From the NCBI GenBank assembly GCA_964555165.1, contig CAZKRN010000040.1, positions 1-30,916 of the forward strand: a stretch of DNA of 30,916 bases. The letters are read 5' to 3'. The position numbers were made by a program, and so were the translations under genes. Numbering within the stretch: position 1 is the stretch's first letter; the number at the start of each line of letters is the position of its first letter. The DNA comes from an uncultured Methyloversatilis sp. (GTDB lineage: Bacteria > Pseudomonadota > Gammaproteobacteria > Burkholderiales > Rhodocyclaceae). Of this stretch, positions 2,101 through 25,476 are shown one piece after another. The notes below the pieces were generated by a model, which saw nothing but the letters and a program-made list of their open reading frames with translations, was not told where the DNA came from and made no database searches.

Positions 2101-3096
2101 TCACGCGGCGCTCTGGCGCCGGCCGGGTGCCGCCTCCTCCTGCCCGGCGCCGCACACCTGCATGCTCAAGCCGGTCGCCCGGCTGAGTTGATCCTGCACA
2201 TGCTTCTGGCCGTGCTCGATCAGGAAGCCCTGGAAGTCGGCCGCTACGCGGGTGAGCTGGCGCGATGCGAGCCGGATCACATACCACTCCCGTTCTATCG
2301 GATTGCCGGCTACCGGCAACAGGGTCAGTTCGCCGGATTCGATCTCGTGCCGGCAGATGTGCTGCGACATGAACGCAAGGCCGAAGCCGGCAGCGCACAT
2401 CTGCTTGATCGCCTCATTGCTGGACAGTTCGGAGCCGATGCGCAGATTCAGCCCGGCTTCGCGGAAAAGCTGTTCCAGCGTGGTGCGCGTGCCCGAACCG
2501 CGTTCGCGCACCAGCAGGTCTTCGCGCGCGATATCGCCCAGCGTCAGGCGCTTGCGCGCCATCAGCGGATGCGACGGTGCGGCGACGAAAGCCATGGTGT
2601 GGCGCGCAAACGGCGTGGCCACGGTTTTCAGGTCCTTGGGCGGGCGTCCCATGATGACCAGATCGACTTCCTGCGTGGTGAGCAGGCGCACGATTTCATC
2701 GCGGTTGCCGACCTTGAGTTTCACCTCGACGTTCGGCTGTTCGCGCGCAAACACCACGAGCATGCGCGGCACCAGGTACTCGGCGGTGGTCACCACACCG
2801 ATGCGCAGCCGGCGCGAGACGACGCCGCGATAGGCCGCCATTTCGTCCCCCGCCTCGCGCCACAGGTCGAGAATGCGCGCCGCGTAGTCGGCCATCAGCT
2901 GGCCGGCACCGGTCAGCCGTATGCCCCGCCCCTCGCGCTCGATCAGCGGCGTGCCGGCGGATTCCTCCAGCAGCTTGAGCTGTATCGACACCGCCGGCTG
3001 GGTCAGGTGGATTTCCTGCGCCGCACGCGAAACACTGCCCAGGCGGGCGACGGCGTGCAGTGCGGACAACTGGCGCAAGGTGGCGTTCTTCAGCAT
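2101..3096 (-). CDS. cbbR: LysR-type transcriptional regulator CbbR (RuBisCO operon activator)
   Basis: N-terminal 'MLKNATLRQLSALHAVARLGSVSRAAQEIHLTQPAVSIQLKLLEE' is a canonical LysR wHTH. The gene is divergent from cbbL with about 370 bp between them. Start chosen at ATG 3096 (the ORF track extends to 3159). C-terminal LysR substrate-binding domain of expected length (331 aa). Confidence 0.85.
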   Translation of the reverse strand: MLKNATLRQLSALHAVARLGSVSRAAQEIHLTQPAVSIQLKLLEESAGTPLIEREGRGIRLTGAGQLMADYAARILDLWREAGDEMAAYRGVVSRRLRIGVVTTAEYLVPRMLVVFAREQPNVEVKLKVGNRDEIVRLLTTQEVDLVIMGRPPKDLKTVATPFARHTMAFVAAPSHPLMARKRLTLGDIAREDLLVRERGSGTRTTLEQLFREAGLNLRIGSELSSNEAIKQMCAAGFGLAFMSQHICRHEIESGELTLLPVAGNPIEREWYVIRLASRQLTRVAADFQGFLIEHGQKHVQDQLSRATGLSMQVCGAGQEEAAPGRRQSAA

Positions 3097-4933
<1,837 letters not shown>

Positions 4934-7222: not shown

Positions 7223-8004
7223 GCGTGCGCATCGCCCCCAGCCTGCTGTCGGCCGACTTCGCTCGCCTCGGCGCGGAAGTGAGCGCGGTGATCGAGGCCG
7301 GCGCCGACCTCATCCACTTCGATGTCATGGACAACCACTACGTGCCCAATCTGACCGTGGGGCCACAGGTATGTCAGGCGATCAGGCCCTACGCGGTGCG
7401 GACCCCCGGCAGCGGCGGGCCGCTGCCGCCCCCCGAGGGGGCCGCCGACGGTCTCCGGAACGGCCGGGCGCCCGCCCGCACAGCGGTGCCGATCGACGTG
7501 CATCTGATGGTGAAGCCGGTCGATGCGCTGATCCCGATGTTCGCGAACGCCGGTGCCGACATCGTGTCCTTCCATCCGGAAGCGAGCGAGCACATCGACC
7601 GCACGCTCCAGCTCATCCACTCGCACGGCCTGAAAGCCGGGCTGGTGCTGAACCCGGCCACACCGCTCAATGTGCTGGACCACGTGCTGGACCGGCTCGA
7701 CCTTGTACTGCTCATGTCGGTGAACCCGGGCTTCGGCGGTCAGCGCTTCATCGAATCGGTACTGCCCAAGATCGAGGCGGTACGCCGTCGCATAACCGCC
7801 AGCGGCCGCGACATCTGGCTGGAAGTCGATGGCGGCGTGAATGCCGACAACGCCGGTCGCGTCGCCGCCGCCGGCGCCGACACCCTGGTCGCCGGGTCGG
7901 CCGTATTCACCGGCGGCCGTTATGCCGAATCCATCCGCACCCTGCGCGAACGCGCACTGGCCGGCCGAGCGCCGAGCCCCGAACCCGAGGCCCACCATGT
8001 CTGA
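7219..8004 (+). CDS. cbbE: Ribulose-phosphate 3-epimerase carrying an in-frame insertion of about 28 aa
   Basis: '[18 protein letters not shown]...[17 protein letters not shown]...[11 protein letters not shown]...[13 protein letters not shown]...VDGGV' are canonical Rpe motifs. Between 'CQAIR' and 'IDVHLMV' there are 35 residues where E. coli and Cupriavidus Rpe have about 7. Confidence 0.9.
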
Positions 8005-8710
8005 GCTGCAGCGCGCACTGAGCCGCATCCACGCCATCGCCTTCGACCTCGACGGCACCCTGGTCGACAGTGCCGCCGACATCTGGCACGCGCTGAACGC
8101 GGGCCTGAGCGAAGCCCGTCTGCCCGCCATCGATCTGCCCACGGTGCGCGGCTGGATAGGCGGCGGGCCGGACAAGCTCATCGCGCGCGCGCTCGACCAC
8201 CTGGGCAGACCGGGCGACGGCCCGCTGGCCGCGCGCCTGCGCGCCGACTTCGACCGCGCCACGCTGGCCGCGCCGCTCGATCGCGGCATGGTCTATGACG
8301 GCATCGACGAAATGGTCGAAGGGCTTTACGCACTGTGCCCGCTGGTGGTGGTGACCAACAAGCCGACTCTGCTGGCCCGCGCAGTGCTGGGCGCAGCCGG
8401 CCTGCTGCCCTTCATGTCGGCCGTGCATGGCGGCGACCGGAGCGAACTGCTCAAGCCCTCGCCGACCCTGCTCATCGAGGCCGCCGGTCGCCTGGCTGTC
8501 CAGGCGCGACAGATGCTGATGGTGGGCGACAGCGAGGCCGATCTGCAGGCGGCCCGGGCCGCCGGCTGCCCGGTCGCGCTGGTCGGCTGGGGATACGGGA
8601 CGGCCGGTGGCGCGCACGCCTCTGCCGCCGGCATCGCACCCTGCTTGCTGACGCGCCCGGGCGAGCTGCTGGCCGCGATGAGCGCGCGTTTCGAGGAAGA
8701 GACCGGGTAG
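7997..8710 (+). CDS. cbbZ: Phosphoglycolate phosphatase (HAD superfamily)
   Basis: '[29 protein letters not shown]' (DxDGT motif I), 'VVVTNKP' (motif II-like), '[14 protein letters not shown]' (motif IV). Start overlaps the cbbE stop by 8 nt. Confidence 0.8.
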
Positions 8711-8788: not shown

Positions 8789-9874
8789 ATGCCCACAGGC
8801 GGACGCACCACGCTGGTCCAGTACCTGATCGAAGAACGCCGTCGCCACCCGGAGGCGACCGGTGACCTCAACGCGCTGATCACCGACGTCGCACTCGCCT
8901 GCAAGGCGATCGCGCGCAAGGTGGCGTTCGGCGCCCTGGCCGGCGTCCTCGGCGTGAACGCTGTCGAGGCAGGCCGCATCAATGTGCAGGGCGAAGAACA
9001 GAAGACGCTGGACGTGCTCAGCAACGGCATCTTCCTGCGCGCCAACGAATGGGGCGGCCACCTCGCGGCGATGGCCTCGGAAGAGCTGGACGACATATCG
9101 CTGCCGCCGGCGCAGTACCCGCGCGGCAAATACCTGCTGGCTTTCGATCCACTGGACGGCTCGTCCAACATCGACGTTAACGTGTCGGTCGGCAGCATTT
9201 TCTCGATCACCCGCGCGCCCGATCCGGCACGCGACGCCACCGCGACCGACTTCCTGCAGCCGGGCCGCGAACAGGTGTGCGCCGGCTACGCGATCTACGG
9301 CCCCTCCACCATGCTGGTGATCACGCTGGGTCGCGGCACGCACGGCTTCACGCTGGACCCGGTGCTGGGCGAATGGGTGCTCAGCCACCCGGCGCTCAAG
9401 GTGCCAGCGGCCACCCGCGAGTTCGCGATCAACGCGTCGAACAGCCGTTTCTGGGAGCCGGCGGTGCGCCGCTACGTCGACGAATGCCTGGCCGGACGTA
9501 CCGGCCCCCGCTGCGCCGATTTCAATATGCGCTGGATCGCCTCGCTGGTCGCCGAAACCCACCGCATCCTGATGCGCGGCGGCGTCTTCCTCTACCCGAA
9601 AGACAACAAGGATCCGGCAAAGCCCGGCCGCCTGCGCCTGCTGTACGAAGCCAGCCCGATTTCCTTCCTGATCGAACAGGCGGGCGGCCGCGCCAGCACC
9701 GGTCGCAAGCGGCTCATGGACGTGCAGCCGGAAGCGCTGCACCAGCGCATCGGCTTCGTGTTCGGCTCGGCCGATGAGGTCGAGCGCATCGAGGCCTACC
9801 ACCGCGAGCCGCCCGCCGACACCTTCCAGTCGCCGCTGTTCGGCAAGCGCGGCCTGTTCGCCGATGCGCTCTGA
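8789..9874 (+). CDS. cbbF: Fructose-1,6-bisphosphatase class 1 (also likely sedoheptulose bisphosphatase)
   Basis: 'LVQYLIEE...[18 protein letters not shown]', '[11 protein letters not shown]', '[26 protein letters not shown]', '[10 protein letters not shown]' are FBPase-I signatures. RBS GGAGGAGAG. Confidence 0.9.
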
Positions 9875-10003: not shown

Positions 10004-10882
10004 ATGTCCGTGAAACACCCCATCGTCGCCATCACCGGTTCGTCCGGTGCCGGCACCTCATCGGTCACACGCACCTTCGAGAACATCTTCCGCCGGGAAG
10101 GCGTGTCCGCCGCCGTCATCGAGGGCGACAGCTACCACCGCTACGACCGCACCGAAATGAAGAAGGCGATGGCGGACGCCGAGGCCGGCGGACGCCCGCA
10201 CTTCAGCCACTTCGGCGAAGACGCCAACCTGTTCGCGGAGCTGGAACAGCTCTTTCGCGACTACTCGGAAAGCGGCACCGGGCGCAGCCGCAAATACCTG
10301 CACAACGACGAGGAAGCCGCGCCCTTCCAGCAGCCGGCCGGCACCTTCACGCCCTGGGCGCAGCTGCCGGAAAGCGAACTGCTGTTCTACGAGGGACTGC
10401 ACGGCGGCGTGAAGACCGAACATGTTGATGTATCCCGGTACGCCGATCTGCTGATCGGCGTGGTGCCTGTCATCAACCTCGAGTGGATCCAGAAGATCCA
10501 CCGGGACCGCAGCACCCGCGGCTATTCCACCGAAGCCGTGACCGACGTCATCCTGCGCCGCATGCACGACTACGTGCACTACATCTGCCCGCAATTCACG
10601 CGCACTCACATCAACTTCCAGCGCGTGCCGGTGGTCGACACCAGCGACCCCTTCATCGCGCGCACGATTCCGACCGCCGACGAAAGTCTGGTGGTGATCC
10701 GCTTCGCCAATCCGCGCGGCTTCGACTTCCCCTATCTGCTCAGCATGCTGCACGACTCCTGGATGTCGCGCGCCAACACGCTGGTGGTGCCCGGCGGAAA
10801 GATGGAACTGGCGATGCAGCTCATCTTCACGCCGATGATCCTGCGTCTGGTCGAACGCCGCCGCCAGCAGCGGGCCGCCTGA
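10004..10882 (+). CDS. cbbP: Phosphoribulokinase
   Basis: 'MSVKHPIVAITGSSGAGTSSV' P-loop and overall PRK/URK family layout (292 aa). RBS AAAGGA. Confidence 0.95.
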   Translation: MSVKHPIVAITGSSGAGTSSVTRTFENIFRREGVSAAVIEGDSYHRYDRTEMKKAMADAEAGGRPHFSHFGEDANLFAELEQLFRDYSESGTGRSRKYLHNDEEAAPFQQPAGTFTPWAQLPESELLFYEGLHGGVKTEHVDVSRYADLLIGVVPVINLEWIQKIHRDRSTRGYSTEAVTDVILRRMHDYVHYICPQFTRTHINFQRVPVVDTSDPFIARTIPTADESLVVIRFANPRGFDFPYLLSMLHDSWMSRANTLVVPGGKMELAMQLIFTPMILRLVERRRQQRAA

Positions 10883-10892
10883 GGAGAGCGCG

Positions 10893-12932
10893 ATGAACGA
10901 CATGAACGCTTCCCTGTTCCTGCGCACGCAGTGCGCCAACGCTCTGCGCGCGCTGTCGATGGACGCGGTGCAGGCCGCGAATTCCGGCCACCCGGGCATG
11001 CCGATGGGCATGGCCGACATCGCCGAGGCGCTGTGGCGCCACCACCTGAAGCACGACCCGGCCGACCCGCACTGGCCGGACCGCGACCGCTTCGTGCTGT
11101 CCAACGGTCACGGCTCGATGCTGCTGTATGCGCTGTTGCACCTGTCGGGCTACGACCTGCCGATGGACGAGCTGCGCCGCTTCCGGCAGCTGCATTCGCG
11201 CACGCCCGGCCACCCCGAGGTCGACGTCACGCCGGGTGTCGAAACCACCACCGGCCCGCTCGGTCAGGGTATCGCCAACGCGGTCGGCATGGCGCTGGCG
11301 GAAAAGCTGCTCGCCGCCGAATTCAACCGGCCGGGCCATACGGTGATCGACCACCGCACCTGGGCGTTCGTCGGCGACGGCTGCCTGATGGAGGGCATCA
11401 GCCACGAAGCGTGTTCGCTGGCCGGCACCTGGCAGCTTTCCAAACTGGTGGTGTTCTACGACGACAACGGCATTTCCATCGACGGCGATGTAGGCGGCTG
11501 GTTCACCGACGATACGCCTGCGCGCTTCGAAGCCTATGGCTGGGCCGTGGTGCGCCATGTCGACGGCCACGACCCGGTGGCGCTGGACGCCGCCATCGAC
11601 ACCGCGCTGACCAGCGACCGGCCGGTGCTGGTCTGCTGCAGGACGCGCATCGGCCAGGGTTCGCCGAACCGCGCCGGCACCGCCAGGGCGCACGGCGAGG
11701 CGCTGGGCGAGGCGGAGATCGCGCTCACCCGCGAAGCGCTGGGCTGGCGCGCCCCACCCTTCGACATACCGGATGCACTGCGCGACGCCTGGTCGGCAAG
11801 GGAAGGCGGAGCGAGCGCCCACCGCGCCTGGCAGCAGCGCTTCGACCACTACGCCAGGGCCTTTCCCGAGCTGGCCGCCGAACTGCGTCGCCGGCTGCGG
11901 CGCGACGCGCCGCTCGCTTCGGACGCACTGCGCGCGCTCGAAGCCGCCTGCGAAGCCGCCGAAGCGCGTGCCGCCGCGGTCGCCACACGCAAGGCCTCGC
12001 AGGACTGCCTGCACATCGTCGCGCCGTCGATGCCCGAACTGCTCGGCGGCTCGGCCGACCTCACCGGCTCCAACCTGACCGACTGGAAGGGCCACCGGCC
12101 GCTCAAGGGAGAGGGCACCGGCAACCACGTGCATTACGGCGTGCGCGAATTCGGCATGGCGGCGGTGATGAATGGCGTGGCACTGCACGGCGGCTACCGG
12201 CCCTTCGGCGGCACCTTCCTCACCTTCTCCGACTACGCGCGCAACGCCATCCGCATGTCGGCGCTGATGAAGCTGCCGGTCACCTATGTATTCACGCACG
12301 ACTCGATCGGCCTCGGCGAGGACGGCCCCACCCACCAGCCGGTCGAGCACGCGGCCAGCCTGCGGCTCATTCCGGGGGTAGACGTCTGGCGGCCGGCCGA
12401 CGCCACCGAAACCGCAGTGGCCTGGCGCGCGGCACTGCGCCGTGGCGCCAGTCCCGATCCCGGCCCGACCTGCCTGCTGCTGTCGCGCCAGGCGCTGCCG
12501 CACGCCGGCGACGGCACGCCGCGCATCGACGACATCGCGCGCGGCGGCTACGTGCTGCGCGCACCGCGCGACGAACAGGTGTGCCTGATCGCCACCGGCT
12601 CCGAAGTCGCGATCGCGCTGCGCGCCGCCGAAGAGCTGGCCGCCGAAGGCATCGCCGCGCGCGTGGTGTCCATGCCCTGCGTCGAGGTGTTCGAGCGGCA
12701 GGAGGAGGACTGGCGCAGGACGGTGATTCCGCGCCACCTGCCGCGGCTGGCCATCGAAGCCGGGCGCACCGCGATGTGGTGGAAGTACGTCGGCGAACGG
12801 GGCGATGTGGTGGGGCTGGACCGCTTCGGCGAATCGGCGCCCGCCGCCCGGCTGTTCGATCTGTTCGGCCTGACGCCGCCGGCAGTCGCCGCGCGGGCGC
12901 GCGCGCTGCTCGCTGCGGGCGAACGCGCATGA
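10893..12932 (+). CDS. cbbT: Transketolase
   Basis: 679 aa. 'GHPGMPMGMADIA', 'GDGCLMEGISHEA', 'THDSIGLGEDGPTHQPVEHAASLR' are TPP-binding and transketolase motifs. RBS GGAGAG. Confidence 0.95.
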   Translation: MNDMNASLFLRTQCANALRALSMDAVQAANSGHPGMPMGMADIAEALWRHHLKHDPADPHWPDRDRFVLSNGHGSMLLYALLHLSGYDLPMDELRRFRQLHSRTPGHPEVDVTPGVETTTGPLGQGIANAVGMALAEKLLAAEFNRPGHTVIDHRTWAFVGDGCLMEGISHEACSLAGTWQLSKLVVFYDDNGISIDGDVGGWFTDDTPARFEAYGWAVVRHVDGHDPVALDAAIDTALTSDRPVLVCCRTRIGQGSPNRAGTARAHGEALGEAEIALTREALGWRAPPFDIPDALRDAWSAREGGASAHRAWQQRFDHYARAFPELAAELRRRLRRDAPLASDALRALEAACEAAEARAAAVATRKASQDCLHIVAPSMPELLGGSADLTGSNLTDWKGHRPLKGEGTGNHVHYGVREFGMAAVMNGVALHGGYRPFGGTFLTFSDYARNAIRMSALMKLPVTYVFTHDSIGLGEDGPTHQPVEHAASLRLIPGVDVWRPADATETAVAWRAALRRGASPDPGPTCLLLSRQALPHAGDGTPRIDDIARGGYVLRAPRDEQVCLIATGSEVAIALRAAEELAAEGIAARVVSMPCVEVFERQEEDWRRTVIPRHLPRLAIEAGRTAMWWKYVGERGDVVGLDRFGESAPAARLFDLFGLTPPAVAARARALLAAGERA

Positions 12933-13804
12933 GGGCCGCACGCATTGCCATCGACGGCGACGGCCCGGTCGCCCGCAGCGTGCTGCGTGCGCTGGCCGGT
13001 CGCGACGACCTGCATCTGGTCGCCATGAACGCGACCGGACACCCGCACGAGGTCGACACCGGCGTGCCGCGGCTGCGCGTGCGCGACGCGCGACGCCTGC
13101 CCTGGAAGCGGCACGCGGTCGACATCGTGCTCGACTGCAGCGGCCGCGACGCACGCGACCACCTCCGGGCCGGTGCGCGCAAGGTATTGAGCTGCACGTC
13201 GTCCGGCGCGGCGGCCGATACAACCGTCGTGTATGGCATCAATCATCGAGCGCTGCGCGACAGCCATCTGCACGTGCACAGCGCATGCCGGGTGACACAC
13301 TGCATCGCGCCGGTCGCGCGTGTGCTGCACGACGCCCTCGGCATTTCGAATGCGATGCTCACCCGCGTGCACAGCCGGCCACACGATGCCGAGCCGGAGC
13401 CCGCCGCCACGGCGCGACCCGCCGGTGCGGCCGAACATCTGCACCGCGTGCTGCCTGAACTGGATCACTGCTTCGACGAAACCGAACCGATGCGCATCGC
13501 CGGCGCGTACGCATCGCTGGTCGGCATGGTGTTCATCGCTCGCCGCGCCAGCACGGCGGATGAGGTGAACGGACTGCTGCAGGCCGCAGCCGCCGGCGAC
13601 TGGTCCGACATCGTGCGCTACGGCGACACGCCCTTCACCACCGCACTGTGCGACCGCGATACGCGCTCCTGCATCTTCGAATCCGGCTGGACCCAGGTGT
13701 CCGGCCGCATCGTGAAGGTGTGCGCCGGCAACCATGGCGACCTCGGGTACGCCCACCGCGTGGTCGACACCGCCCGCGCCATGCACCGCCCTCCTAGCCC
13801 CTAG
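12929..13804 (+). CDS. Highly divergent, shortened GAPDH-like protein at the cbbG position (possible pseudo-enzyme or decaying gene)
   Basis: 292 aa, collinear with GAPDH over its full length: 'RIAIDGDGPVARSVLRAL' aligns with 'KVGINGFGRIGRNVFRAA', 'SACRVTHCIAPVARVLHDALGI' with '[21 protein letters not shown]', 'LTRVHS' with 'MTTVHA', 'VLPEL' is retained. The glycine-rich NAD loop is degraded. There is a 1-aa insertion at the catalytic Cys motif and deletions of about 25 and 10 aa. ATG overlaps the tkt stop. Confidence 0.6.
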   Translation: MRAARIAIDGDGPVARSVLRALAGRDDLHLVAMNATGHPHEVDTGVPRLRVRDARRLPWKRHAVDIVLDCSGRDARDHLRAGARKVLSCTSSGAAADTTVVYGINHRALRDSHLHVHSACRVTHCIAPVARVLHDALGISNAMLTRVHSRPHDAEPEPAATARPAGAAEHLHRVLPELDHCFDETEPMRIAGAYASLVGMVFIARRASTADEVNGLLQAAAAGDWSDIVRYGDTPFTTALCDRDTRSCIFESGWTQVSGRIVKVCAGNHGDLGYAHRVVDTARAMHRPPSP

Positions 13805-13830
13805 CCCCTAGCCCCTAGCCCCTAGCCCCC
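13791..13830. repeat. (CCCCTAG)x5 heptanucleotide tandem repeat
   Basis: TAG at 13795, 13802, 13809, 13816 and 13823, exactly 7 nt apart. The stop codon of the GAPDH-like ORF (13802-13804) lies inside the repeat. Because 7 is not a multiple of 3, the array places a TAG in every forward frame. The fba RBS GAGGA follows immediately. Confidence 0.8.
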
Positions 13831-13842
13831 GAGGATTTGACC

Positions 13843-14859
13843 ATGCCCATGATTTCCCTGCGCCAGCTGCTGGATCACGCCGCCGAACACGGCTACGGCG
13901 TACCGGCCTTCAACATCAACAACCTGGAACAGATACAGGCCATCATGCAGGCGGCGCAGAAGGTGAATGCACCGGTCATCCTGCAGGCGTCGGCCGGCGC
14001 GCGGAAGTATGCGGGCGAGCCCTTCCTGCGCCGCATGGTGGAAGCGGCGGCGGAAATGTATCCTGCGCTGCCCATCGTGCTGCACCAGGACCACGGCGCC
14101 AGCCCGGCGGTATGCGTGCAGGCCATCCGCTCGGGCTTCACCAGCGTCATGATGGATGGCTCGCTGATGGAGGACGCGAAGACGCCCGCCAGCTATGAGT
14201 ACAACGTGGACGTGACGCGCCGCGTGGTCGACATCGCGCACGCGGTCGGCGTGTCGGTGGAAGGCGAACTGGGCTGCCTCGGTTCGCTCGAATCCGGCAC
14301 CGCTGGCGAGGAGGACGGCGTCGGCGCAGCCGGCGTGCTCACCCATGACCAGATGCTGACCGACCCGGACCAGGCCGCCGACTTCGTCGCCGCCACCGGC
14401 GTCGATGCGCTGGCCATCGCCATCGGCACCAGTCACGGCGCCTACAAGTTCTCGCGCGAGCCGACCGGCGACATCCTCGCCATCGACCGCATCAAGGCCA
14501 TCCATGCGCGCATCCCGGACACCCATCTGGTCATGCACGGGTCGAGCAGCGTGCCGCAGGACTGGCTGGGCATCATCCGCGCGCACGGCGGCGACATCCG
14601 CGAAACGTACGGCGTGCCGGTCGAGGAAATCCAGGAAGGCATCCGCCACGGCGTGCGCAAGGTGAATATCGACACAGACATCCGCCTTGCCATGACCGGC
14701 GCAATGCGCCGCGCGATGGCGCGCGACCCGTCGGAATTCGACCCGCGCAAGTTCATGAAAGACGCCATGACCGCCGCCCGCGACCTCTGCATCGAGCGCT
14801 TCGAAGCCTTCGGCTGCGCCGGCATGGCCGGGCGCATCGTGCTGCGCAAGGCGGCCTGA
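13843..14859 (+). CDS. cbbA: Fructose/sedoheptulose-bisphosphate aldolase, class II (Calvin-cycle subtype)
   Basis: '[56 protein letters not shown]', '...LHQDHG', 'SVMMDGS' and '[11 protein letters not shown]' are class-II FBA signatures. RBS GAGGA 7 nt upstream. Confidence 0.92.
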
Positions 14860-15008: not shown

Positions 15009-16871
15009 TCAAGCGGTTGCAGCGGTCCCGAGTATGGCCTTCAGCCGCGCCGCGAACCCGCGCTCGGCGGAAGCGGTCACCAGCAGGCGCTCGGTCGAAC
15101 GTGTCATCGCGACATAGAGCAGTTTGGCGTCAGCCGCCACGCGCTCCGTGTCATCCTCTGCTCGCGGCAGCGTGTGGGTGCCGCAAACGACCATGAAGGG
15201 AAACTCCAGCCCCTTGCTGCTGTGCATGGTCATCAGTTTCACTGTGTCTTCCGACGGGCTGAAGCGGCGCTTCGATTGCGAATCGGACAGCCAGTGCACC
15301 GGTATCGATGACGCCTTCAGATAGCGATGCAGGCGGTCGCCGATGTACCTGTCGGGGCAGGCGATACACATGTCGGCCCAGGCCACGCCGCGCTCCGCGT
15401 GCATCTTCTTCAGCGTGCGGGTGATGAGCGCCATTTCGTCGCGGTCGGATCCGACGATGCGCAGCACCGGTGGCGGGCCGCGACGCCCGCTCGACTGAGG
15501 CTCGATCAGTGGCACATGATCGTCGTCGGCATCTGCCGCGGTCAGGTAGACGCGAGCAAAGTCGTAGGCGAAACGAATCACATCCTCGGTGTTGCGATAG
15601 TTCAGCTTGAGTACCGTGCTGCGGCCACGTGCTTGTATGCCCACGCTGGACAGGCTGAAGTCCAGGCCACCACGTTTGCCGTAGATCGACTGCGCGTCGT
15701 CATACAGCATCAGGAAGGAACTGGTTTCCGGGTCGACCATGCCAACGATGAGGCGCAACCACTCCGGCGCGAAATCGTGCCCCTCGTCGATCATCACCGC
15801 ACCGTATTGAGCGCGCGGTATGAGGCCCTTGTCGACGGCGTCGATCACGGTGGATACGAGCTGCTCGAAATAGTCCTTTCCCGTTGCCGGGCGCTCGACG
15901 TGATAGGCCCGCAACTGTTCGCTGCACCAGTCGTGGAAGTGATAGACGCTCACCTTGTCAGCGATACCACGGCTGGCGATAAGGTCACGCAGCCGTGCGG
16001 CCAGCGCGATGTTGTAGCAGAGCACGAGAATGGGTTTCGCGAGCAGCTTGGCCAGATGCAGGCAACGGTAGCCAAGGATGAGCGTCTTGCCGGAGCCGGC
16101 CACGCCATGGATGACGCGGTGCCCGTCGCCCAGGCTGCGGGCCAGCAGTTCCTGCTGCATGTCCATCACCTTGACGAGATCCGGCAGCACGCTATCGGCC
16201 GAAGCTTCGTCATCGACCTCAGCAAACAGGTCCGCCTGCTGATGACCGATGCGCACCTCCGGAAACAGGTGCCAACGGATGCGGTCGATCTGCGGCAGCG
16301 TGAGACTTTGCGGAAAGCTCACGTCAAACATGCTCCACAGCCGCTGCTGAAACTCCTCGGCGTCGCTTGCCTCGCGCATTTCGTCGGCGCAGATGACGCG
16401 ATGTGGCGGCAGAACGTCGCCGAGGTCGGTACCGTCGAACTGCTTGCGCGTCATGCCGCTGAGCACTACGCCATAGCCCCAGGGCAGTACGAGCTTGCCG
16501 CGATATCGACCGTCCTGTTGAACCAGCTGGGGATCGCGCTCCAAGTCGCCGATGAGCTGATAGGCGCACTGCCTTACCTGTTCCAGCGGATTGCTCACCA
16601 CCCGCGGTCCCGCCTCGGTCAGTATCTGCGCCGATACGCGGTCGATGGACTGTATGGTGGCGAGCCGCCAGTCCTTCACTTCCAGCAGCAGCAGGCCACG
16701 GCGGGGGTGCAGGACGATGAAGTCCGAGTACCGCCGGCGGTCGCCGACCGGCATGTCATACCAGCACAGGTAGTCGTCTTCCAGCTTGTCTTCGAGCCGC
16801 TGCGCAAAACGTCGTTCGCCCGCCTGCATTCGGGACGTACACGCGCTGTATGAGGGAATGAGCGTAGCCAT
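15009..16871 (-). CDS. NERD-domain + UvrD/Rep-like superfamily-1 helicase
   Basis: N-terminal 'YLCWYDMPVGDRRRYSDFIVLHPRRGLLLLEVKDW' resembles NERD (nuclease-related domain). Walker A 'GVAGSGKTLILGY', 'AVMIDEGHDF' (Walker B / motif II), C-terminal 'MTMHSSKGLEFPFMVV' (UvrD motif V/VI-like). ATG at 16871, 620 aa. Confidence 0.75.
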   Translation of the reverse strand: MATLIPSYSACTSRMQAGERRFAQRLEDKLEDDYLCWYDMPVGDRRRYSDFIVLHPRRGLLLLEVKDWRLATIQSIDRVSAQILTEAGPRVVSNPLEQVRQCAYQLIGDLERDPQLVQQDGRYRGKLVLPWGYGVVLSGMTRKQFDGTDLGDVLPPHRVICADEMREASDAEEFQQRLWSMFDVSFPQSLTLPQIDRIRWHLFPEVRIGHQQADLFAEVDDEASADSVLPDLVKVMDMQQELLARSLGDGHRVIHGVAGSGKTLILGYRCLHLAKLLAKPILVLCYNIALAARLRDLIASRGIADKVSVYHFHDWCSEQLRAYHVERPATGKDYFEQLVSTVIDAVDKGLIPRAQYGAVMIDEGHDFAPEWLRLIVGMVDPETSSFLMLYDDAQSIYGKRGGLDFSLSSVGIQARGRSTVLKLNYRNTEDVIRFAYDFARVYLTAADADDDHVPLIEPQSSGRRGPPPVLRIVGSDRDEMALITRTLKKMHAERGVAWADMCIACPDRYIGDRLHRYLKASSIPVHWLSDSQSKRRFSPSEDTVKLMTMHSSKGLEFPFMVVCGTHTLPRAEDDTERVAADAKLLYVAMTRSTERLLVTASAERGFAARLKAILGTAATA

Positions 16872-17271
16872 GCCTGGAAGAGGAAGGCGCAAGACAGCCG
16901 GAATGATAGTGGATGTGTTCGAGAGGCTGCGTGGATGCCTAATTGGATGGCGGACCATCCGGTCCTGCGTCGCAAACCGTCCCGATACCGATCGGTGGAA
17001 CGGTGGTGCCGCTGGAGATCGTCCGCTGATCCAACTCGTCGACCCACTACCTTTAAACCTTGCGATCCAGAAACAACGAGACGCTGCAGACCCAGAGCAC
17101 GACCGAGGCCAGCATCGGCACTTGCATTCTGCTCTGGCTGCGCCTCGCTCCAATGCTTCGGCCGCTTCGCCGGACTACAACTTCATCGCCGGTACGATGG
17201 AAGTTCTGGGCCAAGCATGCAATCAACACCCGCCGTCTGTCGGACAATACTTTCGTAACAGAGGATCGCGC

Positions 17272-19788: not shown

Positions 19789-20826
19789 TCAGCCGTCGCG
19801 GCGAGCCACGACCACCTCGGCCCCGGCCGCGGCTTCGTCCAGCGTGATGGAGAGCGGAAGGAAGGCCTCGATCACCTTCACCACGGTACGACAGTGCGAC
19901 GAAACCGTCGTGCACCGGAACCGCGAACCACCCGCCAGCGAGGCCGGGAGCATGATCTGGTCGGCAAGATGTTCACCCACGGGCGCCGTACCGGCCAGAT
20001 AGGCGCGTACCTGGCGCACCAGCGCGACCGCGACCAGCGCCGCCGGTCGGCCGCGTTCGCCGAAGGCCGAGAAGACCTCGGTGGTTGCGTCGCTCGCTAT
20101 CGTCATCTGCAGTACGTTTCCCGGTCCTTCGTTGGCTGGCAAGAGACGGATGTCGCTGCCGATGTCGGGCAATTGCCCGGCCAGGGCGCGGCTCACGGCC
20201 TCGATTTCGCGGCGTGCGACGTCGGCCGGTACGGCAGCGACGATGGACTCGACCCGGGCACCGCGCAGTGTTCCCCGCTCAAGCAGATGCAATGGATCCA
20301 GCCGGGCGACGGGCACCGTGCGGGCGACCAGCCGCCCGCCCCCGGCCGGGTAGAAACCGTGCCTGGGCACGTCGATATCCACGGACGCACCGATGGCACG
20401 CACGTGCGGCACCCAGGCGCGCAGAAGAAAGTCCGCCGTGGGCGCCGCACTGTTGTGCGTGCCACCGCTGATCTCGACCGTGGACGGCGCGTCGGCATGC
20501 CAGAGCGCAGGCAACAGGGTCTGCAGCACCAGCGTCGTACTGCCCGCCGAGCCGATGGCGAATCGATAGTCTCCGCCGCGCACCCGTCCGGGAACGAAGG
20601 TCAGCGCCTGCGACCCCGGCTCAAGCCCGCTGACGCGCGCGCCGCAGATTTCGGCCGACGCACCGACGGCCACCATATGCTGCCTGAGCAGTCCGGGGCG
20701 CGGGCGTCCGGCGCGGATGCGCGTCATGCGGAAGGGGCGTCCGGTGACCATGGACAGGGAAAGTGCGGTACGCAGAATCTGCCCACCCCCTTCGCCGACG
20801 GATCCATCGAGTTCCAGCATGTCCAT
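19789..20826 (-). CDS. rtcA: RNA 3'-terminal phosphate cyclase
   Basis: 'MDMLELDGSVGEGGGQILRTALSLSMVTGRPFRMTRIRAGRPRPGL', then 'EISGGTHNSAAPTADFL' containing the catalytic His of the RtcA family. One nt separates it from the rtcB stop. Confidence 0.9.
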   Translation of the reverse strand: MDMLELDGSVGEGGGQILRTALSLSMVTGRPFRMTRIRAGRPRPGLLRQHMVAVGASAEICGARVSGLEPGSQALTFVPGRVRGGDYRFAIGSAGSTTLVLQTLLPALWHADAPSTVEISGGTHNSAAPTADFLLRAWVPHVRAIGASVDIDVPRHGFYPAGGGRLVARTVPVARLDPLHLLERGTLRGARVESIVAAVPADVARREIEAVSRALAGQLPDIGSDIRLLPANEGPGNVLQMTIASDATTEVFSAFGERGRPAALVAVALVRQVRAYLAGTAPVGEHLADQIMLPASLAGGSRFRCTTVSSHCRTVVKVIEAFLPLSITLDEAAAGAEVVVARRDG

Positions 20827-20827
20827 G

Positions 20828-22039
20828 TCAGCCTTTCACACAGACGATCTGGCTGAGCGTATGGACGACTTCCACAAGCTCGCTCTGGGCCGCCATCACG
20901 GCATCGATGTTCTTGTACGCCATCGGAATCTCGTCGATCACATCGGCGTCCTTGCGGCATTCGACATGCGCCGTCGCCTTGATCTGGTCGTGCACCGAAT
21001 AGCGTCGCTTCGCCTCGTTGCGGCTCATGGTGCGCCCGGCACCGTGACTGCACGAACAGAACGACTGCTCGTTGCCCAGACCGCGGACAATGAAGCTGCG
21101 CGCACCCATGGAGCCGGGGATGATGCCGAGTTCGCCGCGCCTGGCCGATACCGCACCCTTGCGGGTGACCAGCAGGTCGACGCCGAAATGCTCTTCCCGC
21201 TGCACGTAGTTGTGATGGCAGTTCACGGCCTCCACGTCGGCGCGGAAGGGTTTTCCGATTACCGCGCGTGCGGCATCGACGACATGCGCCATCATCACGG
21301 CACGGTTGCGCCGCGCGAAATCCTGCGCCCAGCCGACCGCCTCGACGTAGTCATCGAAGTGCGCACTGCCTTCTTCGAAATAGGCCAGATCGCGGTCGGG
21401 CAGGTTTGCGATGTGTTGCCTCATGTCCTGCTGCGCCAGTTCGATGAAATGGCTTCCGATCGCATTGCCGACGCCACGGGACCCCGAGTGCAGCATGAAC
21501 CACACCTGCTGCGCCTCGTCGACACACACTTCGATGAAGTGATTGCCGGTACCCAGGGTACCCAGGTGCTTGCGGTTGTTCGTGTTGCGCAGACGGGGAT
21601 GCTTTTCGGCCAGACTGTCGAATCCCTGCGCAAGCGCGCCCCACATGGCATCGACTGCGGGAGGCGGCGTGTCCCACGCGCCCTTGTCGCGTCGACCGCG
21701 ACCGACCGTGCGGCCGTGCGGCACGGCGCGCTCGATCGCGCTGCGCAAGGCAAAGAGATTGTCCGGCAGGTCCGAAGCGGCGAGCGTGGTGCGCGCAGCC
21801 ATCATGCCGCAGCCGATATCCACGCCGACCGCGGCGGGAATGATGGCCCCCTGCGTCGGAATCACGCTGCCTATGGTCGATCCCTTGCCCAGATGCACGT
21901 CAGGCATCACCGCAAGATGACCGAATATGAAAGGCATGCGCGCAGTGTTCATGAGTTGGCGACGGGCTTCCTCTTCCACCGGCACACCTTCGGTCCACAT
22001 CTTGATCGGCTTTCCGCCGCTCACTTCGAGTATCTGCAT
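20828..22039 (-). CDS. rtcB: RNA-splicing ligase RtcB (3'-phosphate/5'-OH ligase)
   Basis: 'MPDVHLGKGSTIGSV', 'DIGCGM', 'NHAGRxxSR-like CSHGAGRTMSR' and 'HNYV' are RtcB metal and GMP-binding motifs. Start at ATG 22039 ('MQILEV...') with AAGGA RBS. The ORF-track start at 22126 is an upstream extension. Confidence 0.92.
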   Translation of the reverse strand: MQILEVSGGKPIKMWTEGVPVEEEARRQLMNTARMPFIFGHLAVMPDVHLGKGSTIGSVIPTQGAIIPAAVGVDIGCGMMAARTTLAASDLPDNLFALRSAIERAVPHGRTVGRGRRDKGAWDTPPPAVDAMWGALAQGFDSLAEKHPRLRNTNNRKHLGTLGTGNHFIEVCVDEAQQVWFMLHSGSRGVGNAIGSHFIELAQQDMRQHIANLPDRDLAYFEEGSAHFDDYVEAVGWAQDFARRNRAVMMAHVVDAARAVIGKPFRADVEAVNCHHNYVQREEHFGVDLLVTRKGAVSARRGELGIIPGSMGARSFIVRGLGNEQSFCSCSHGAGRTMSRNEAKRRYSVHDQIKATAHVECRKDADVIDEIPMAYKNIDAVMAAQSELVEVVHTLSQIVCVKG

Positions 22040-22122
22040 GATCCTGTCCTTTGTGCCGACCGAGGGCTTCGTGCCCCCGGCCCCGCTGCCCCATGCAGCG
22101 GGGCTCACTACGATCGCGGGCG

Positions 22123-23262
22123 TCAACCCGCCTTTATGGTCACCAGTCCGTCCAGCACCTGGTCGAGGCCACCGAACACGGATATCCGGTCGATACGCTC
22201 GGCCACCCGCTCCAGCGTCTCCAGCTCCTTCAGGCGCAAGGCGGTCGGGTTGTCCTCCATGACCTTGGCCGTGTTCAAGAGCGAACGGGTCGCGGCGGTT
22301 TCCTCGCGGCGCCGTATCACATTGGCCTGGGCCGACTTCTCGGCCTCGACCACCTGGGCCAGGATGGTCTTCATCTCGCCCGGCAGCACGATGTCCTTCA
22401 CGCCCGCGCTGTGCAGTTCGATGCCGAATCCGGCCATCCGCTTCAGCACATGTGCATTGACCACATCATCGATCAACTGCTTGTTCTCCAGCAGCTCGTC
22501 GAGCGTGCGGGTGCCCACGGCCTCGCGCAGTCCGAGCTGCAGTTCGCGGTACAGATGCTCTGCAGGACGGGCCAGCTTCTCGTGCGCCTGCAGCACGTCG
22601 GTGTAGCGCCAGGTCGCGGAAAGATTGATGCGCAGCCCGACCTTGTCGCGCGACAGGATTTCCTGCCCGCTCACCTCCATGCTCTGCAGGCGGGTATCCA
22701 CCAGTTCCACCTGCACATCGCGGTTGAAGCGCCAGAACGCCTCGACACCGGACGGCGTCAGTCGCTGGATGCAGCCGTCCTTCCGGAGCAGGCCCACGTG
22801 GTAGGGCGGAACCTGGACCACGAGGATGCCAGCGATGCCCAGCACGGGTCGACCACGCAAGGACGGCTGCAGAAGGTGGCTGGCAAGCGAAGCCGGCACC
22901 GCATCGGCTTCGCGCAGATCGACCCGTTCGAGTCGGTGGGTGGTCAGGCCCGACCACATCACGCGCCGCGAACCCGGCGGCAGCACCTCGACCAGCACAT
23001 CGTTCTCGTAGCGCAGACCCGCCTGATCCTCGCCCAGCACGAAATCGTGAAAGTGCATGCGGGCCTGTTCAGGTTCGCGGGCCAGCAGGTAGTCCACAAC
23101 CGCAAAGTCGACGTAAGGCTGTTCGGCCGACACGGTCTGTACCGAAAGGCGACGCAACGGATTCCAGAACACATAGCGGCCGGGTTCGAGCACGCGCTCG
23201 AAGTCTCCGTCGCGCAGCAACACGCCGCGTTCGTTCTTCTTCACCACATGACGCTTCAACAT
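22123..23262 (-). CDS. SPFH/band-7 (slipin-like) domain protein with a roughly 200-aa N-terminal region of unknown function; no N-terminal TM segment
   Basis: C-terminal half 'SRDKVGLRINLSATWRYTDVLQAHEKL...GTRTLDELLENKQLIDDVV...GIELHSAGVKDIVLPGEMKTILAQVVEAEKSAQANVIRRREETAATRS' is a typical SPFH core plus a coiled-coil tail. ATG 23262 is preceded by GGGGAGAAGAG. It is the first gene of the sigma54-promoted rtc operon. Confidence 0.75.
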   Translation of the reverse strand: MLKRHVVKKNERGVLLRDGDFERVLEPGRYVFWNPLRRLSVQTVSAEQPYVDFAVVDYLLAREPEQARMHFHDFVLGEDQAGLRYENDVLVEVLPPGSRRVMWSGLTTHRLERVDLREADAVPASLASHLLQPSLRGRPVLGIAGILVVQVPPYHVGLLRKDGCIQRLTPSGVEAFWRFNRDVQVELVDTRLQSMEVSGQEILSRDKVGLRINLSATWRYTDVLQAHEKLARPAEHLYRELQLGLREAVGTRTLDELLENKQLIDDVVNAHVLKRMAGFGIELHSAGVKDIVLPGEMKTILAQVVEAEKSAQANVIRRREETAATRSLLNTAKVMEDNPTALRLKELETLERVAERIDRISVFGGLDQVLDGLVTIKAG

Positions 23263-23492
23263 TTCTCTTCTCCCCAAGTGATACCGGTCATCACCGGCCC
23301 GGCGAACCCGCTGGCGACCCGCGCGGGGAGGCAGGCAACTGCAGACCGTGGCCCTAGGGCGTCGCGACGTGCGCGGCGATCGCGGACAGGTGCTGCCGGT
23401 CATCTGCCTTGCCGCATGGGCGGTCATGCTGGCTGGCCGGGCCGGCGTCGGCTGCTTGCGCGAGCCGCGACCGGCGGGTATTGCAACAACAG

Positions 23493-23640
23493 CTACAGGA
23501 GCAGGAGTCGAACCTGCGACACACCGCTTTCGCGGCTGCTCTACCTCTGAGCTATCCAGAAGGGCGTGCGGGGAATCGAACCCACGCGAACTCGCCAGAG
23601 CACGCATCCAGATCGCATTCACGGCTGCGGCATGCGCGCT
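23493..23640 (-). ncRNA. tRNA-like element(s) in the rtc operon leader (candidate Y-RNA / tRNA-mimic module)
   Basis: Minus-strand reading: '...GCGTGGGTTCGATTCCCCGCACGCCC | TTCTGGA-TA-GCTC-AGAGGTA-GAGC-A-GCCGCGAAAGCGG-TGTGTC-GCAGG-TTCGACT-CCTGC-TCCTGTAGC'. Perfect D-arm (GCTC/GAGC) with A14 and G18G19. Perfect T-arm (GCAGG/CCTGC) with a TTCGA loop. The anticodon arm is replaced by a CCGC-GAAA-GCGG tetraloop hairpin. A second, bulged T-arm-like hairpin (GGGTTCGATTCCCC) lies immediately 5'. No acceptor stem satisfying tRNA rules was found, so this is not a canonical tRNA gene. Confidence 0.4.
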
Positions 23641-23730
23641 GACAACAGGCACGAACCCGGTCATCGCGCACCAGAGGGCCTGAACACCCGTCTCGTGGGC
23701 ACTTGCAGTGAAGTGCGATCACAGCCTCTT

Positions 23731-23886: not shown

Positions 23887-25476
23887 GTGAAACGCATCGT
23901 GGTAATCGGCTTTCTCGGTACCCAGCTCGACTACGGCGGCCGGGGCAGTCAGCGTTGGGAGAAATGGAGACCCACCGTAAGCCTCTGCCAGCAACCGGAT
24001 CTGGTCGTGGGCCGGCTGGAGCTGCTGCACGATGCACGCAGCCGGGGCCTGGCCGAACGGGTGAAATCCGATATCGCATCGGTGTCGCCCGAAACCGACG
24101 TCAGGCGTGTCGAGCTCGAGTTGCGCGACCCGTGGGACTTCGAGGAGGTCTATACCGCCCTTCATGACTTCGCACGTGGCTACGCCTTCGACGGAGACAC
24201 GGAGGACTATCTGATTCACATCACCACCGGTACCCACGTTGCGCAGATCTGCTGGTTCCTTCTGGCGGAGTCGCGCTACATGCCGGCGCGCTTGTTGCAG
24301 ACCTCGCCGCCGCGCAAGAAGGACGGTGCCGACCCGGCCGGGCGTTACGAGGTGATCGATCTCGATCTGTCGCGCTACGACAAGATCGCCCAGCGCTTTC
24401 GTCGCGATCACGACGACAACCAGAGCTTTCTCAAGTCCGGTATCGCGACACGCAACAGCGACTTCAACGCGATGATCGAGCAGATCGAGCGCGTGGCGGG
24501 CGTATCACGTGCGCCGATGTTGCTGGTCGGCCCGACCGGCGCGGGCAAGTCCTTTCTTGCCCGACGCATTTACGAACTCAAGCGCTCTTGTCAGCAGCTC
24601 GCCGGTGCGTTCGTCGAAGTGAACTGCGCGACGCTGCGTGGCGATTCGGCAATGTCCGCGTTGTTCGGTCACGTCAAGGGCGCGTTCACCGGAGCCCAGG
24701 GCGATCGCGCCGGGCTGCTGCGCGCGGCCGACAAAGGCCTGCTGTTCCTGGACGAGATCGGAGAGCTTGGCGCGGACGAACAGGCCATGCTGCTCAAGGC
24801 CATCGAAGACAGGCGCTTCCTGCCCTTCGGCGGCGATCGCGAAACGAGCAGCGACTTCCAGTTGATCGCCGGCACGCACAGGGATCTTCGTCTGTGGGTG
24901 GAACAGGGACGCTTCCGCGAAGACCTCTACGCACGGATCAATATGTGGACCTTCGATCTCCCCGGCCTGTCGAGGCGTCGCGAAGACATCGAGCCCAACC
25001 TCGACTTCGAACTTGAGAAGTTCGCCCTGGAGCACGGGCGGCAGGTGCGATTCAACGCCGAGGCACGCCGTCGCTTTCTCGCCTGGGCCACCTCGGCCGA
25101 CGCGATCTGGCGTGGCAACTTTCGCGAACTCGGTGCCGCGGTCACCCGCATGGCAACGCTCGCCCGCAGCGGGCGCATCACGGAAGAACTTGTCGTCGAA
25201 GAGCTCGCGCGTTTGCGTACAAGCTGGGCGGCGCCGGCCGTGCAGGATCGTGTGGCCACCGTACTGGGCAGCGCCGCCGACAGACTCGACCTGTTCGATC
25301 GTTGCCAGCTTGATACCGTGCTGCGGGTCTGCAGCGACTCTGCCAGCCTGTCCGAAGCGGGGAGAAGGCTGTTCTCGGAATCGCGGCAGGCCAAGAAGCA
25401 GGCGAACGACGCCGACCGCCTGCGCAAGTATCTGGCGCGCTTCGGCCTCGACTGGGAGGCGGCCTCGCGCCGCTGA
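23887..25476 (+). CDS. rtcR: RtcR: CARF-domain, sigma54-dependent AAA+ transcriptional activator
   Basis: N-terminal 'MKRIVVIGFLGTQLDYGGRG' (CARF/Rossmann-like as in E. coli RtcR). Central 'LLVGPTGAGKSFLARRIY' Walker A, 'GAFTGA' sigma54-contact motif, 'LLFLDEIGEL' Walker B, 'RFREDLYARIN' R-finger region, C-terminal HTH. GTG start at 23887. Divergent from the sigma54 promoter. Confidence 0.9.
   Translation: MKRIVVIGFLGTQLDYGGRGSQRWEKWRPTVSLCQQPDLVVGRLELLHDARSRGLAERVKSDIASVSPETDVRRVELELRDPWDFEEVYTALHDFARGYAFDGDTEDYLIHITTGTHVAQICWFLLAESRYMPARLLQTSPPRKKDGADPAGRYEVIDLDLSRYDKIAQRFRRDHDDNQSFLKSGIATRNSDFNAMIEQIERVAGVSRAPMLLVGPTGAGKSFLARRIYELKRSCQQLAGAFVEVNCATLRGDSAMSALFGHVKGAFTGAQGDRAGLLRAADKGLLFLDEIGELGADEQAMLLKAIEDRRFLPFGGDRETSSDFQLIAGTHRDLRLWVEQGRFREDLYARINMWTFDLPGLSRRREDIEPNLDFELEKFALEHGRQVRFNAEARRRFLAWATSADAIWRGNFRELGAAVTRMATLARSGRITEELVVEELARLRTSWAAPAVQDRVATVLGSAADRLDLFDRCQLDTVLRVCSDSASLSEAGRRLFSESRQAKKQANDADRLRKYLARFGLDWEAASRR

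Follow-up and report, generated by a model that had tools for sequence, protein, structure and literature searches.

What does the gene in the cbbG position of a Methyloversatilis Calvin-Benson-Bassham (CBB) operon encode, if its product is no longer a glyceraldehyde-3-phosphate dehydrogenase (GAPDH)? The question is raised by a stretch of 30,916 nucleotides from an uncultured Methyloversatilis sp. (contig CAZKRN010000040.1, assembly GCA_964555165.1), below called the window, which contains a complete form I cbb operon. The 3' part of this operon has the order cbbF-cbbP-cbbT-[GAPDH-like gene]-cbbA, and the GAPDH-like gene (12929..13804, plus strand) is found in the cbbG slot. An initial annotation, made from the sequence of the window, described its product as a degenerate, shortened homologue that aligns end to end with GAPDH, and suggested that the gene is either on its way to becoming a pseudogene or has been repurposed for a non-catalytic role. 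The end-to-end alignment and the intact open reading frame (ORF), which encodes 291 aa plus stop, were both recovered. Of the two readings the repurposed, non-catalytic role is the one favoured by the evidence, as the ORF is intact and conserved, the dN/dS ratio (omega) is below 1 and the catalytic residues are lost. The gene very likely encodes a retained protein that is not a dehydrogenase, and it is a type A member of a family of presumably dead GAPDHs that is restricted to one genus, Methyloversatilis.

The Pfam domains of the window protein and its predicted two-domain fold place it in the GAPDH-like superfamily. Gp_dh_C is matched with 52.9 bits (threshold 24.4), and Gp_dh_N is matched marginally (32.9 bits, threshold 31.7). 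The best sequence match in the PDB is a type I GAPDH/erythrose-4-phosphate dehydrogenase (E4PDH) aligned over the full length (E = 4e-41), and betaproteobacterial GAPDH structures as well as E. coli E4PDH are matched end to end with E-values of ~1e-41 to 1e-32 at ~30% identity. The AlphaFold2 model, for which the family alignment was the input, has a pLDDT of 74 and a pTM of 0.76, with pLDDT below 50 for residues 152-162, the remnant of the S-loop. A Foldseek comparison of this model with GAPDH and E4PDH structures gave TMq values of 0.77-0.83. These comparisons show that the protein, as modelled, keeps the GAPDH fold. The scores obtained with the curated functional models are far below the cut-offs, NCBIfam equivalog models that require 367-616 bits yielding only 104-138. 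TIGR01534, which describes type I GAPDH, gives 104.4 bits where 367.2 are needed, and the other GAPDH equivalog models give 41-128 bits with cut-offs of 431-662. The protein does not qualify as an E4PDH either, since TIGR01532 and PRK13535 score 123.2 and 138.1 with cut-offs of 530.55 and 539, and the catalytic cysteine is absent.

The extent of the losses was determined by aligning 24 family members with 89 canonical homologues, and columns at least 90% conserved in the canonical set were regarded as near-invariant. The window protein retains 26 of the 76 near-invariant columns. Among the 50 lost (canonical numbering) are Ser148, Cys149, Thr150, Asn152, Gln182 and the deleted Arg195 of the active site and phosphate site, Trp310, Asp312, Asn313, Glu314 and Trp315 of the motif that positions the nicotinamide, and Asn6, Arg10, Gly12 and Arg13 of the glycine loop. 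The former active-site motif (13280..13303, plus strand) reads SACRVTHC and can be aligned without gaps to the canonical NASCTTNC, so that the extra residue proposed for this motif does not exist. Cys149 is replaced by Arg (Arg121 of the window protein), Ser148 by Cys, Thr150 by Val and Asn152 by His. The dinucleotide-binding loop (12950..12976, plus strand), which had been reported as lost, is indeed degraded, reading IDGDGPVAR instead of INGFGRIGR with Asn6, Arg10 and Gly12 changed, but a GxGxxA motif (G10, G12, A15) remains. At the Asp32 site the canonical ND motif reads NA, and AGNHGDLGY (13724..13750, plus strand) has replaced the canonical AWYDNEWGY, with loss of Asn313 and Glu314. The residues that make up the NAD(P) site of a type I GAPDH thus seem to be missing from the window protein.

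A total of 41 alignment columns are deleted. The missing residues had been assigned to the catalytic domain; residues are certainly missing, but most of the deleted columns belong to the NAD-binding domain. Of these, 22 correspond approximately to canonical residues 40-70 (deletion site at 13037..13066, plus strand), while five are found just past the canonical CTG motif, where the junction between CSG and R (13136..13147, plus strand) is a family-wide feature. The catalytic domain has lost 14 columns including Arg195 from the S-loop (canonical residues 178-201), the remnant of which (13373..13414, plus strand) also has Pro instead of the phosphate-binding Thr179. His148 (13370..13372, plus strand), the equivalent of the catalytic His176, is kept here, but no more than 75% of the family have it, and Arg231, likewise kept here, is found in just 46%. 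A cysteine at position 149 is found in only 8% of the family. Depending on the clade, the family has R, S, G or C at position 149; C or N at position 148; H, P, R or Y at position 176; and R, T, S, H or Q at position 231. Asn152 has become His in every member. That no one catalytic constellation is conserved is what would be expected of proteins without GAPDH chemistry. With both the catalytic and the cofactor-binding determinants gone, dehydrogenase chemistry has probably been lost, as far as can be judged from the sequence.

The family is small and well delimited. A search of 5.8 billion protein clusters identified 27 clusters of relatives (223-301 aa, 45-99% identity), past which the matches fall abruptly to canonical GAPDH/E4PDH of 330-345 aa with at most 35% identity. 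A profile search of 1.84 billion representatives clustered at 50% identity found only two representatives of the family, with 409 and 473 bits. The third-best match, P0123, a protein of 2089 aa with four GAPDH-like stretches, had 222 bits and the canonical enzymes at most 197 bits. All members that carry organism names belong to Methyloversatilis (M. discipulorum, strains NSM2 and RAC08, and several metagenome-assembled genomes (MAGs)), and the remaining members are from unclassified proteobacterial MAGs. The 90% identity cluster of the window protein has 11 members, among them WP_374336074.1 from a Methyloversatilis sp., and the exact protein is present on seven contigs. Proteins of the family are named "aldehyde dehydrogenase" at NCBI and "glyceraldehyde 3-phosphate dehydrogenase" at JGI.

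The members group into approximately four clades with a mutual identity of 45-57%. The type A clade, which includes the window protein and METUNv1_750054 of M. universalis, has proteins of about 291-301 aa, and the three type B clades have shorter ones. The same three deletions recur in about 27 clusters of 273-301 aa, and those following CSG and in the S-loop are common to all members, which implies that these two losses are older than the diversification of the family, and as the clades sharing them are only 45-57% identical, the loss of function must be old. The family alignment has 55 invariant columns, no indel among the approximately 27 clusters disrupts the frame, and the C-terminal end is conserved as well. 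Conservation is highest in the helix following the old active site (H/C-IAPVARVLH-ALGI), the motif FDETxP, the helix VEEVNALxQCAxFG and the C-terminal strands with TQVSGRxVKVCAGYR. These helices and strands are presumably the catalytic-domain core that forms the dimer interface of GAPDH. In type A, Arg at position 149 and Cys at position 148 are found in all 13 sequences.

Several other candidates for membership were rejected. The 50% identity library contains "GAPDH" representatives of only 280-294 aa that were considered as further dead GAPDHs, but these are chimeric or fragmentary canonical enzymes with an intact SCTTNC motif. Several of them (P0141, P0157, P0169, P0174, P0189 and P0207) are internally duplicated or spliced, and are probably chimeras generated by assembly or gene calling. 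Loci L001-L080 from a contig scan using the family alignment are 31-37% identical and dominated by canonical GAPDH/E4PDH, and the pattern Dx[TM]V[VI][YF]G[VI]NH proved not to be specific for the family.

Selection on the gene was estimated as pairwise dN/dS by the Nei-Gojobori method (NG86), comparing the window with two type A orthologues. The omega of the GAPDH-like gene is 0.27-0.36, with a bootstrap 95% upper limit of 0.52 and a maximum of 0.66 in 1000 replicates. The corresponding values for the neighbours are 0.21-0.24 for the transketolase gene tkt (cbbT), 0.11-0.18 for phosphoribulokinase (PRK; cbbP), 0.14 for cbbF, 0.10 for the RuBisCO large subunit and 0.075-0.10 for fructose-bisphosphate aldolase (FBA; cbbA). 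Purifying selection on the GAPDH-like gene is clearly relaxed compared to that on the neighbouring enzymes, yet real. The constraint is not evenly distributed: codons 1-50, encoding the dinucleotide-binding unit, are near neutral (0.70-0.86), codons 51-125 have an omega of 0.11-0.29, codons 51-170 one of 0.11-0.39, and the C-terminal domain one of 0.28-0.36. Pairs of type B genes have values of 0.19-0.52. The proposal of relaxed selection is accordingly borne out, both by an omega two to four times that of PRK and FBA and by the nearly neutral first 50 codons. That the gene is on its way to becoming a pseudogene is not, as all frames are open, none of the 1000 replicates exceeds 0.66 and the deletions are shared by divergent clades. 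Frameshifts, in-frame stops, an omega near 1 and a lack of conservation among orthologues, as expected of a pseudogene, were not found. The combination observed, homology and purifying selection together with lost catalytic residues, is that of a pseudoenzyme, although the inactivity itself is only predicted. The possibility that the window copy decays faster than its orthologues was also considered, and was rejected since the omega of its terminal branch, calculated by hand from three-taxon distances, is about 0.25 and does not exceed that of the orthologues.

The genomic context was compared for the window and nine independent contexts, represented by 15 loci (L081-L095) including repeated assemblies of the same arrangement. 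At every family locus recovered the GAPDH-like gene is in a cbb operon with PRK. Type A copies are always found after tkt and before fba, and in four of the five type A loci the start codon overlaps the tkt stop codon, as ATGA in the window (12929..12932, plus strand) and as TGATG in L087, L094 and L095, whereas L084 has a spacer of two nucleotides. The operon position and the coupling to tkt noted in the initial annotation are thus both retained. Type B copies close a shorter operon that lacks tkt and fba, cbbLSX-HAD-cbbF-cbbP-[gene], where they follow PRK directly, as in the complete genome of strain RAC08 (CP016448), in which the type B gene is BSY238_1878. Both paralogues are present in L087 (MAG GCA_043821905.1, 302-6371), in the order PRK-tkt-[type A]-fba-[type B]. 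Remains of a second, decayed copy past the end of cbbA were sought by tblastn in the window and in L084, and none were found. When L087 is compared to RAC08 the dS is 0.22 for the type B gene and 0.61 for PRK, a contrast suggesting that the 3' part of the locus has recombined or been transferred between lineages.

The most informative locus is L092, a metagenomic contig (JGI 3300044603) in which, relative to RAC08, the region from cbbR through the 5' part of cbbF has been deleted, and which lies beside NiFe hydrogenase genes. What remains of cbbF (7490-8115) is 70% identical to RAC08 cbbF at the nucleotide level with 49 gap positions in 564 nucleotides, and the homology is spread across three reading frames with in-frame stops. 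It is thus a true pseudogene. Directly downstream of this remnant, PRK (92% amino acid identity) and the GAPDH-like gene (73%) are both intact. The omega of the GAPDH-like gene is 0.29 in the comparison of RAC08 and L092, that of the adjacent EamA transporter gene being 0.27, and on the L092 branch, where the locus has no RuBisCO, it is 0.35, with about 0.07-0.08 for PRK. The GAPDH-like gene clearly does not evolve neutrally, and the wrecked cbbF displays the outcome of neutral evolution in this very lineage. The retention of PRK without a local RuBisCO is odd in itself.

The course of events that best explains these results would be that a type I GAPDH copy in the cbb operon lost its dehydrogenase chemistry in an ancestor of Methyloversatilis. 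With the catalytic Cys would have gone Thr179 and Arg195, which bind phosphate, the residues that position the nicotinamide, part of the Rossmann domain and most of the S-loop. The ORF would nevertheless have remained intact, with co-transcription and translational coupling preserved. The protein would no longer turn over glyceraldehyde-3-phosphate and would instead probably serve the CBB cycle as an accessory without catalysis of its own, in which oligomerisation and partner binding most likely depend on the conserved core of the catalytic domain and on the C-terminal strands. This partner could be PRK or a genuine GAPDH encoded elsewhere. A partner-binding accessory role is preferred because of the pattern of conservation and the co-retention with PRK. 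The separate parts of this explanation are not equally secure. A retained accessory protein that is linked to the CBB cycle and is not a GAPDH is probable, although less so than a retained protein without dehydrogenase function as such, and a regulatory or scaffolding role connected specifically to PRK is a tentative suggestion. A role as partner of PRK would explain why PRK and the GAPDH-like protein have as a pair outlasted the deletion of RuBisCO.

The strongest competitor is a protein that has acquired a new function, where a rebuilt, basic active-site pocket would bind or act on a phosphorylated CBB metabolite, so that the protein works as a sensor or as another type of catalyst. The putative site would consist of Arg121 (Cys149), His124 (Asn152), His117, Cys120, His148, Arg150 and Arg189 (canonical Arg231). 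Family-specific residues do cluster near the helix of the old active site (H117 and A122 in 96%, H124 and R131 in 100% of the members), the FDETxP motif with E184, T185 and P187 is new, Arg149 and Cys148 are constant in type A, and codons 51-170 are under stronger constraint than the N-terminus. His124 is, however, the only one of the site residues that is conserved across the four clades, positions 149, 148, 176 and 231 being variable, and we know of no family with a comparable site. Such a remodelled pocket is hence considered rather unlikely. Still less likely is an unusual but working dehydrogenase of the GAPDH/E4PDH type, relying on the shifted Cys120, on His148 and on the GxGxxA loop, which is of the NADP type. 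A cysteine one position upstream of the canonical one is found in 83% of the family, most members keep His176, type A proteins keep Arg231, a TGAA-like motif and the GxGxxA loop, and the slot is that of cbbG in other cbb operons. Cys148 is not conserved in every clade, though, nor is His176, and the losses of N313, E314, the Asp32 position and T179 (now Pro) and of 14 S-loop residues including R195 would be hard to reconcile with such an activity, as would the near-neutral codons 1-50 and scores that are three to five times below all curated equivalog cut-offs. A canonical Gapdh is moreover encoded elsewhere in M. universalis FAM5, a member of the genus (PMC5023235).

A neutrally decaying relic, that is, an unprocessed pseudogene, would remain open simply as stop codons are rare in high-GC DNA, and long spurious ORFs are indeed present in every frame of the window. 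The omega above that of all neighbouring enzymes, the lost catalytic residues and the departure of the window lineage from eight conserved positions would also fit a relic. An omega of 0.27-0.36 that in no bootstrap replicate exceeded 0.66 does not, nor do the exclusively in-frame indels, the conserved C-terminus and the 55 invariant columns, and in L092 the adjoining cbbF, at equal divergence, exemplifies neutral decay. Two paralogues have furthermore been retained in one operon in L087. Taken together this makes a relic improbable, slightly more so than a working dehydrogenase. An assembly or sequencing error that truncated a canonical cbbG has nothing but the unusual length in its favour and can be dismissed almost entirely. 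It is refuted by independent assemblies, as the exact protein is found on several contigs and in a populated 90% identity cluster, and the same deletions are shared by over 100 family sequences in NCBI, JGI, ENA and Logan assemblies, including the complete genome CP016448. The retained, non-catalytic accessory protein is therefore the preferred explanation.

Some observations weigh against this explanation, or at least limit it. The confidence of the AlphaFold2 model is moderate (pLDDT 74). The constraint on the gene is weak, with an omega two to four times that of PRK or FBA, and the NG86 estimates are pairwise and derived from few DNA sequences. In a genome with 68% G+C a long open frame is by itself weak evidence for a gene. 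The window lineage departs at eight positions that are otherwise conserved in the family (P91S, R114L, A122V, P191A, E211D, F222A, Y268N and R269H), which may reflect additional relaxation in this lineage or be an effect of its being a singleton branch. The link to PRK is based on gene order and on one metagenomic contig (L092). In M. universalis FAM5, finally, the cbb operon with a gene named CbbG is barely expressed on methanol or methylamine (CbbG 17-20 units; PMC5023235).

The genuine GAPDH activity is probably encoded at another place in the genome. The initial annotation noted that the operon lacks pgk and proposed that functional gap and pgk genes must reside elsewhere. A domain search of the window cbb operon found no PGK domain. 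The second part of the proposal agrees with what is known for one species, as M. universalis FAM5 has a second, highly expressed cluster, Fbp3-Prk-Tk-Gapdh-Pgk-Pyk-Fba, that encodes both Gapdh and Pgk (PMC5023235). Metabolic reconstructions in which the GAPDH-like gene is counted as the GAPDH of the Calvin cycle are then probably wrong, and the reductive step has to be supplied by genes of the second gap-pgk cluster.

The slot itself is well known. Canonical CbbG is encoded in cbb operons such as cbbLSXYEFPTZGKA of Cupriavidus necator and cbbFPTGA of Rhodobacter sphaeroides, and these enzymes of about 335 aa keep the SCTTNC motif, His176, the S-loop and the NAD(P) site. The window protein shares with them the position after cbbP/cbbT and before cbbA, the superfamily and the fold, and in M. 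universalis FAM5 the gene in this slot carries the name CbbG (PMC5023235). The window protein differs from them in its length of 291 aa, in the loss of most of the near-invariant positions including Cys149, and in falling below every GAPDH equivalog cut-off. Among characterized proteins Epd (E4PDH; TIGR01532, PDB 2x5j and 2xf8) provides both the best NCBIfam match (138 bits) and the best Foldseek match (TMq 0.82), and it is also a GAPDH paralogue whose gene adjoins tkt, pgk and fba genes. In Epd, which is a genuine dehydrogenase, Cys149 and His176 are however present and the S-loop has its full length.

In plastids and cyanobacteria the CP12-GAPDH-PRK complex and the regulatory subunit GapB couple a GAPDH-family protein to PRK, and thereby regulate the CBB cycle. 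By analogy, the putatively dead GAPDH of Methyloversatilis shares an operon with PRK, and the two remain paired after the loss of RuBisCO, the likeness being one of gene linkage alone. The window protein has neither CP12-like sequence nor a C-terminal extension, the GAPDH of the CP12 complex is catalytically active, and proteobacterial PRK is of a different kind (class I, octameric). That the dead GAPDH should be a dedicated regulatory or scaffolding partner of the operon PRK, and so the proteobacterial counterpart of the CP12/GAPDH/PRK switch, is the most novel of the scenarios considered, and an improbable one. Another parallel is offered by the RuBisCO-like proteins (form IV), which are also homologues of a CBB enzyme that lack key catalytic residues and are conserved in another role. 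These are widespread, ancient and enzymatically active in other pathways, whereas the GAPDH-like family is confined to one genus. Vertebrate ALDH16 has a fold of the aldehyde dehydrogenase type from which the catalytic residues have been lost, and protein-protein interactions have been proposed as its mode of action (PMC12041015), but the ALDH superfamily is not related to the GAPDH-like one, and ALDH16 is eukaryotic and has no operon context.

No published description of the Methyloversatilis GAPDH-like family was found in the searchable literature. Pseudoenzymes and GAPDH paralogues with a shifted function, such as Epd, are already known; what is new is a dead GAPDH fixed in an operon for CO2 fixation. 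As far as the literature found goes, this would be the first GAPDH-derived pseudoenzyme embedded in such an operon. The protein is a testable candidate for an additional layer of control of the CBB cycle or of PRK in facultative autotrophs and methylotrophs. The young, one-genus family also captures the step from enzyme to pseudoenzyme, with the adjoining true pseudogene as an internal control. The narrow distribution and the weak constraint make the interest moderate only.

The window operon is preceded by cbbR (2101..3159, minus strand), encoding a divergent LysR-type regulator, and starts with cbbL (3467..4933, plus strand), encoding the RuBisCO large subunit. Genes for a CbbX-type AAA ATPase, a HAD phosphatase, ribulose-phosphate epimerase (rpe) and a second HAD phosphatase follow between 5413 and 8710 on the plus strand (ORF bounds with unrefined starts). 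Thereafter come cbbF (8789..9874), encoding fructose-1,6-bisphosphatase, cbbP (10004..10882), cbbT (10893..12932) directly upstream of the GAPDH-like gene, and cbbA (13843..14859), which encodes a class II FBA and is the last gene of the operon, all on the plus strand. The cbbA start codon ATG at 13843 agrees with the orthologue N-terminus MPMISL. The GC3 of the GAPDH-like gene is 0.85, matching that of its neighbours, and a scan of the window from cbbP to the end of cbbA identified no Sigma-70 promoter-like sites and no terminator-like sites on the plus strand.

The last codons of the GAPDH-like gene, its stop codon and the spacer before cbbA are spanned by a perfect heptamer tandem repeat, 5.3 copies of CCTAGCC (13793..13829, plus strand). 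TAG is present in each of the three frames of the repeat, which also specifies the P(P/L)SP at the C-terminus of the protein. The orthologous spot in L084 (10868-10975) has about 14 copies, including the variants CCCTCAG and CCCTAGC, while L087 and L094 have none, showing that the copy number differs among lineages.

Downstream of the operon, and convergent to its end, a gene for a NERD-UvrD helicase is found (15009-17153, minus strand). It is present in the same position in RAC08, L087 and L094, but not in L084. Further downstream the window contains an RNA-repair cluster with genes encoding RtcA (19789-20826), RtcB (20828-22126) and a Band-7/SPFH protein (22123-23664), all on the minus strand, and the divergently transcribed gene for the sigma-54 activator RtcR (23887-25476, plus strand). 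The minus strand carries, at 27893-28969, a gene whose Fic/DOC-family product has a SoFic-like C-terminal domain, and RAC08 likewise has a Fic gene near its cbb locus, at the end of L081.

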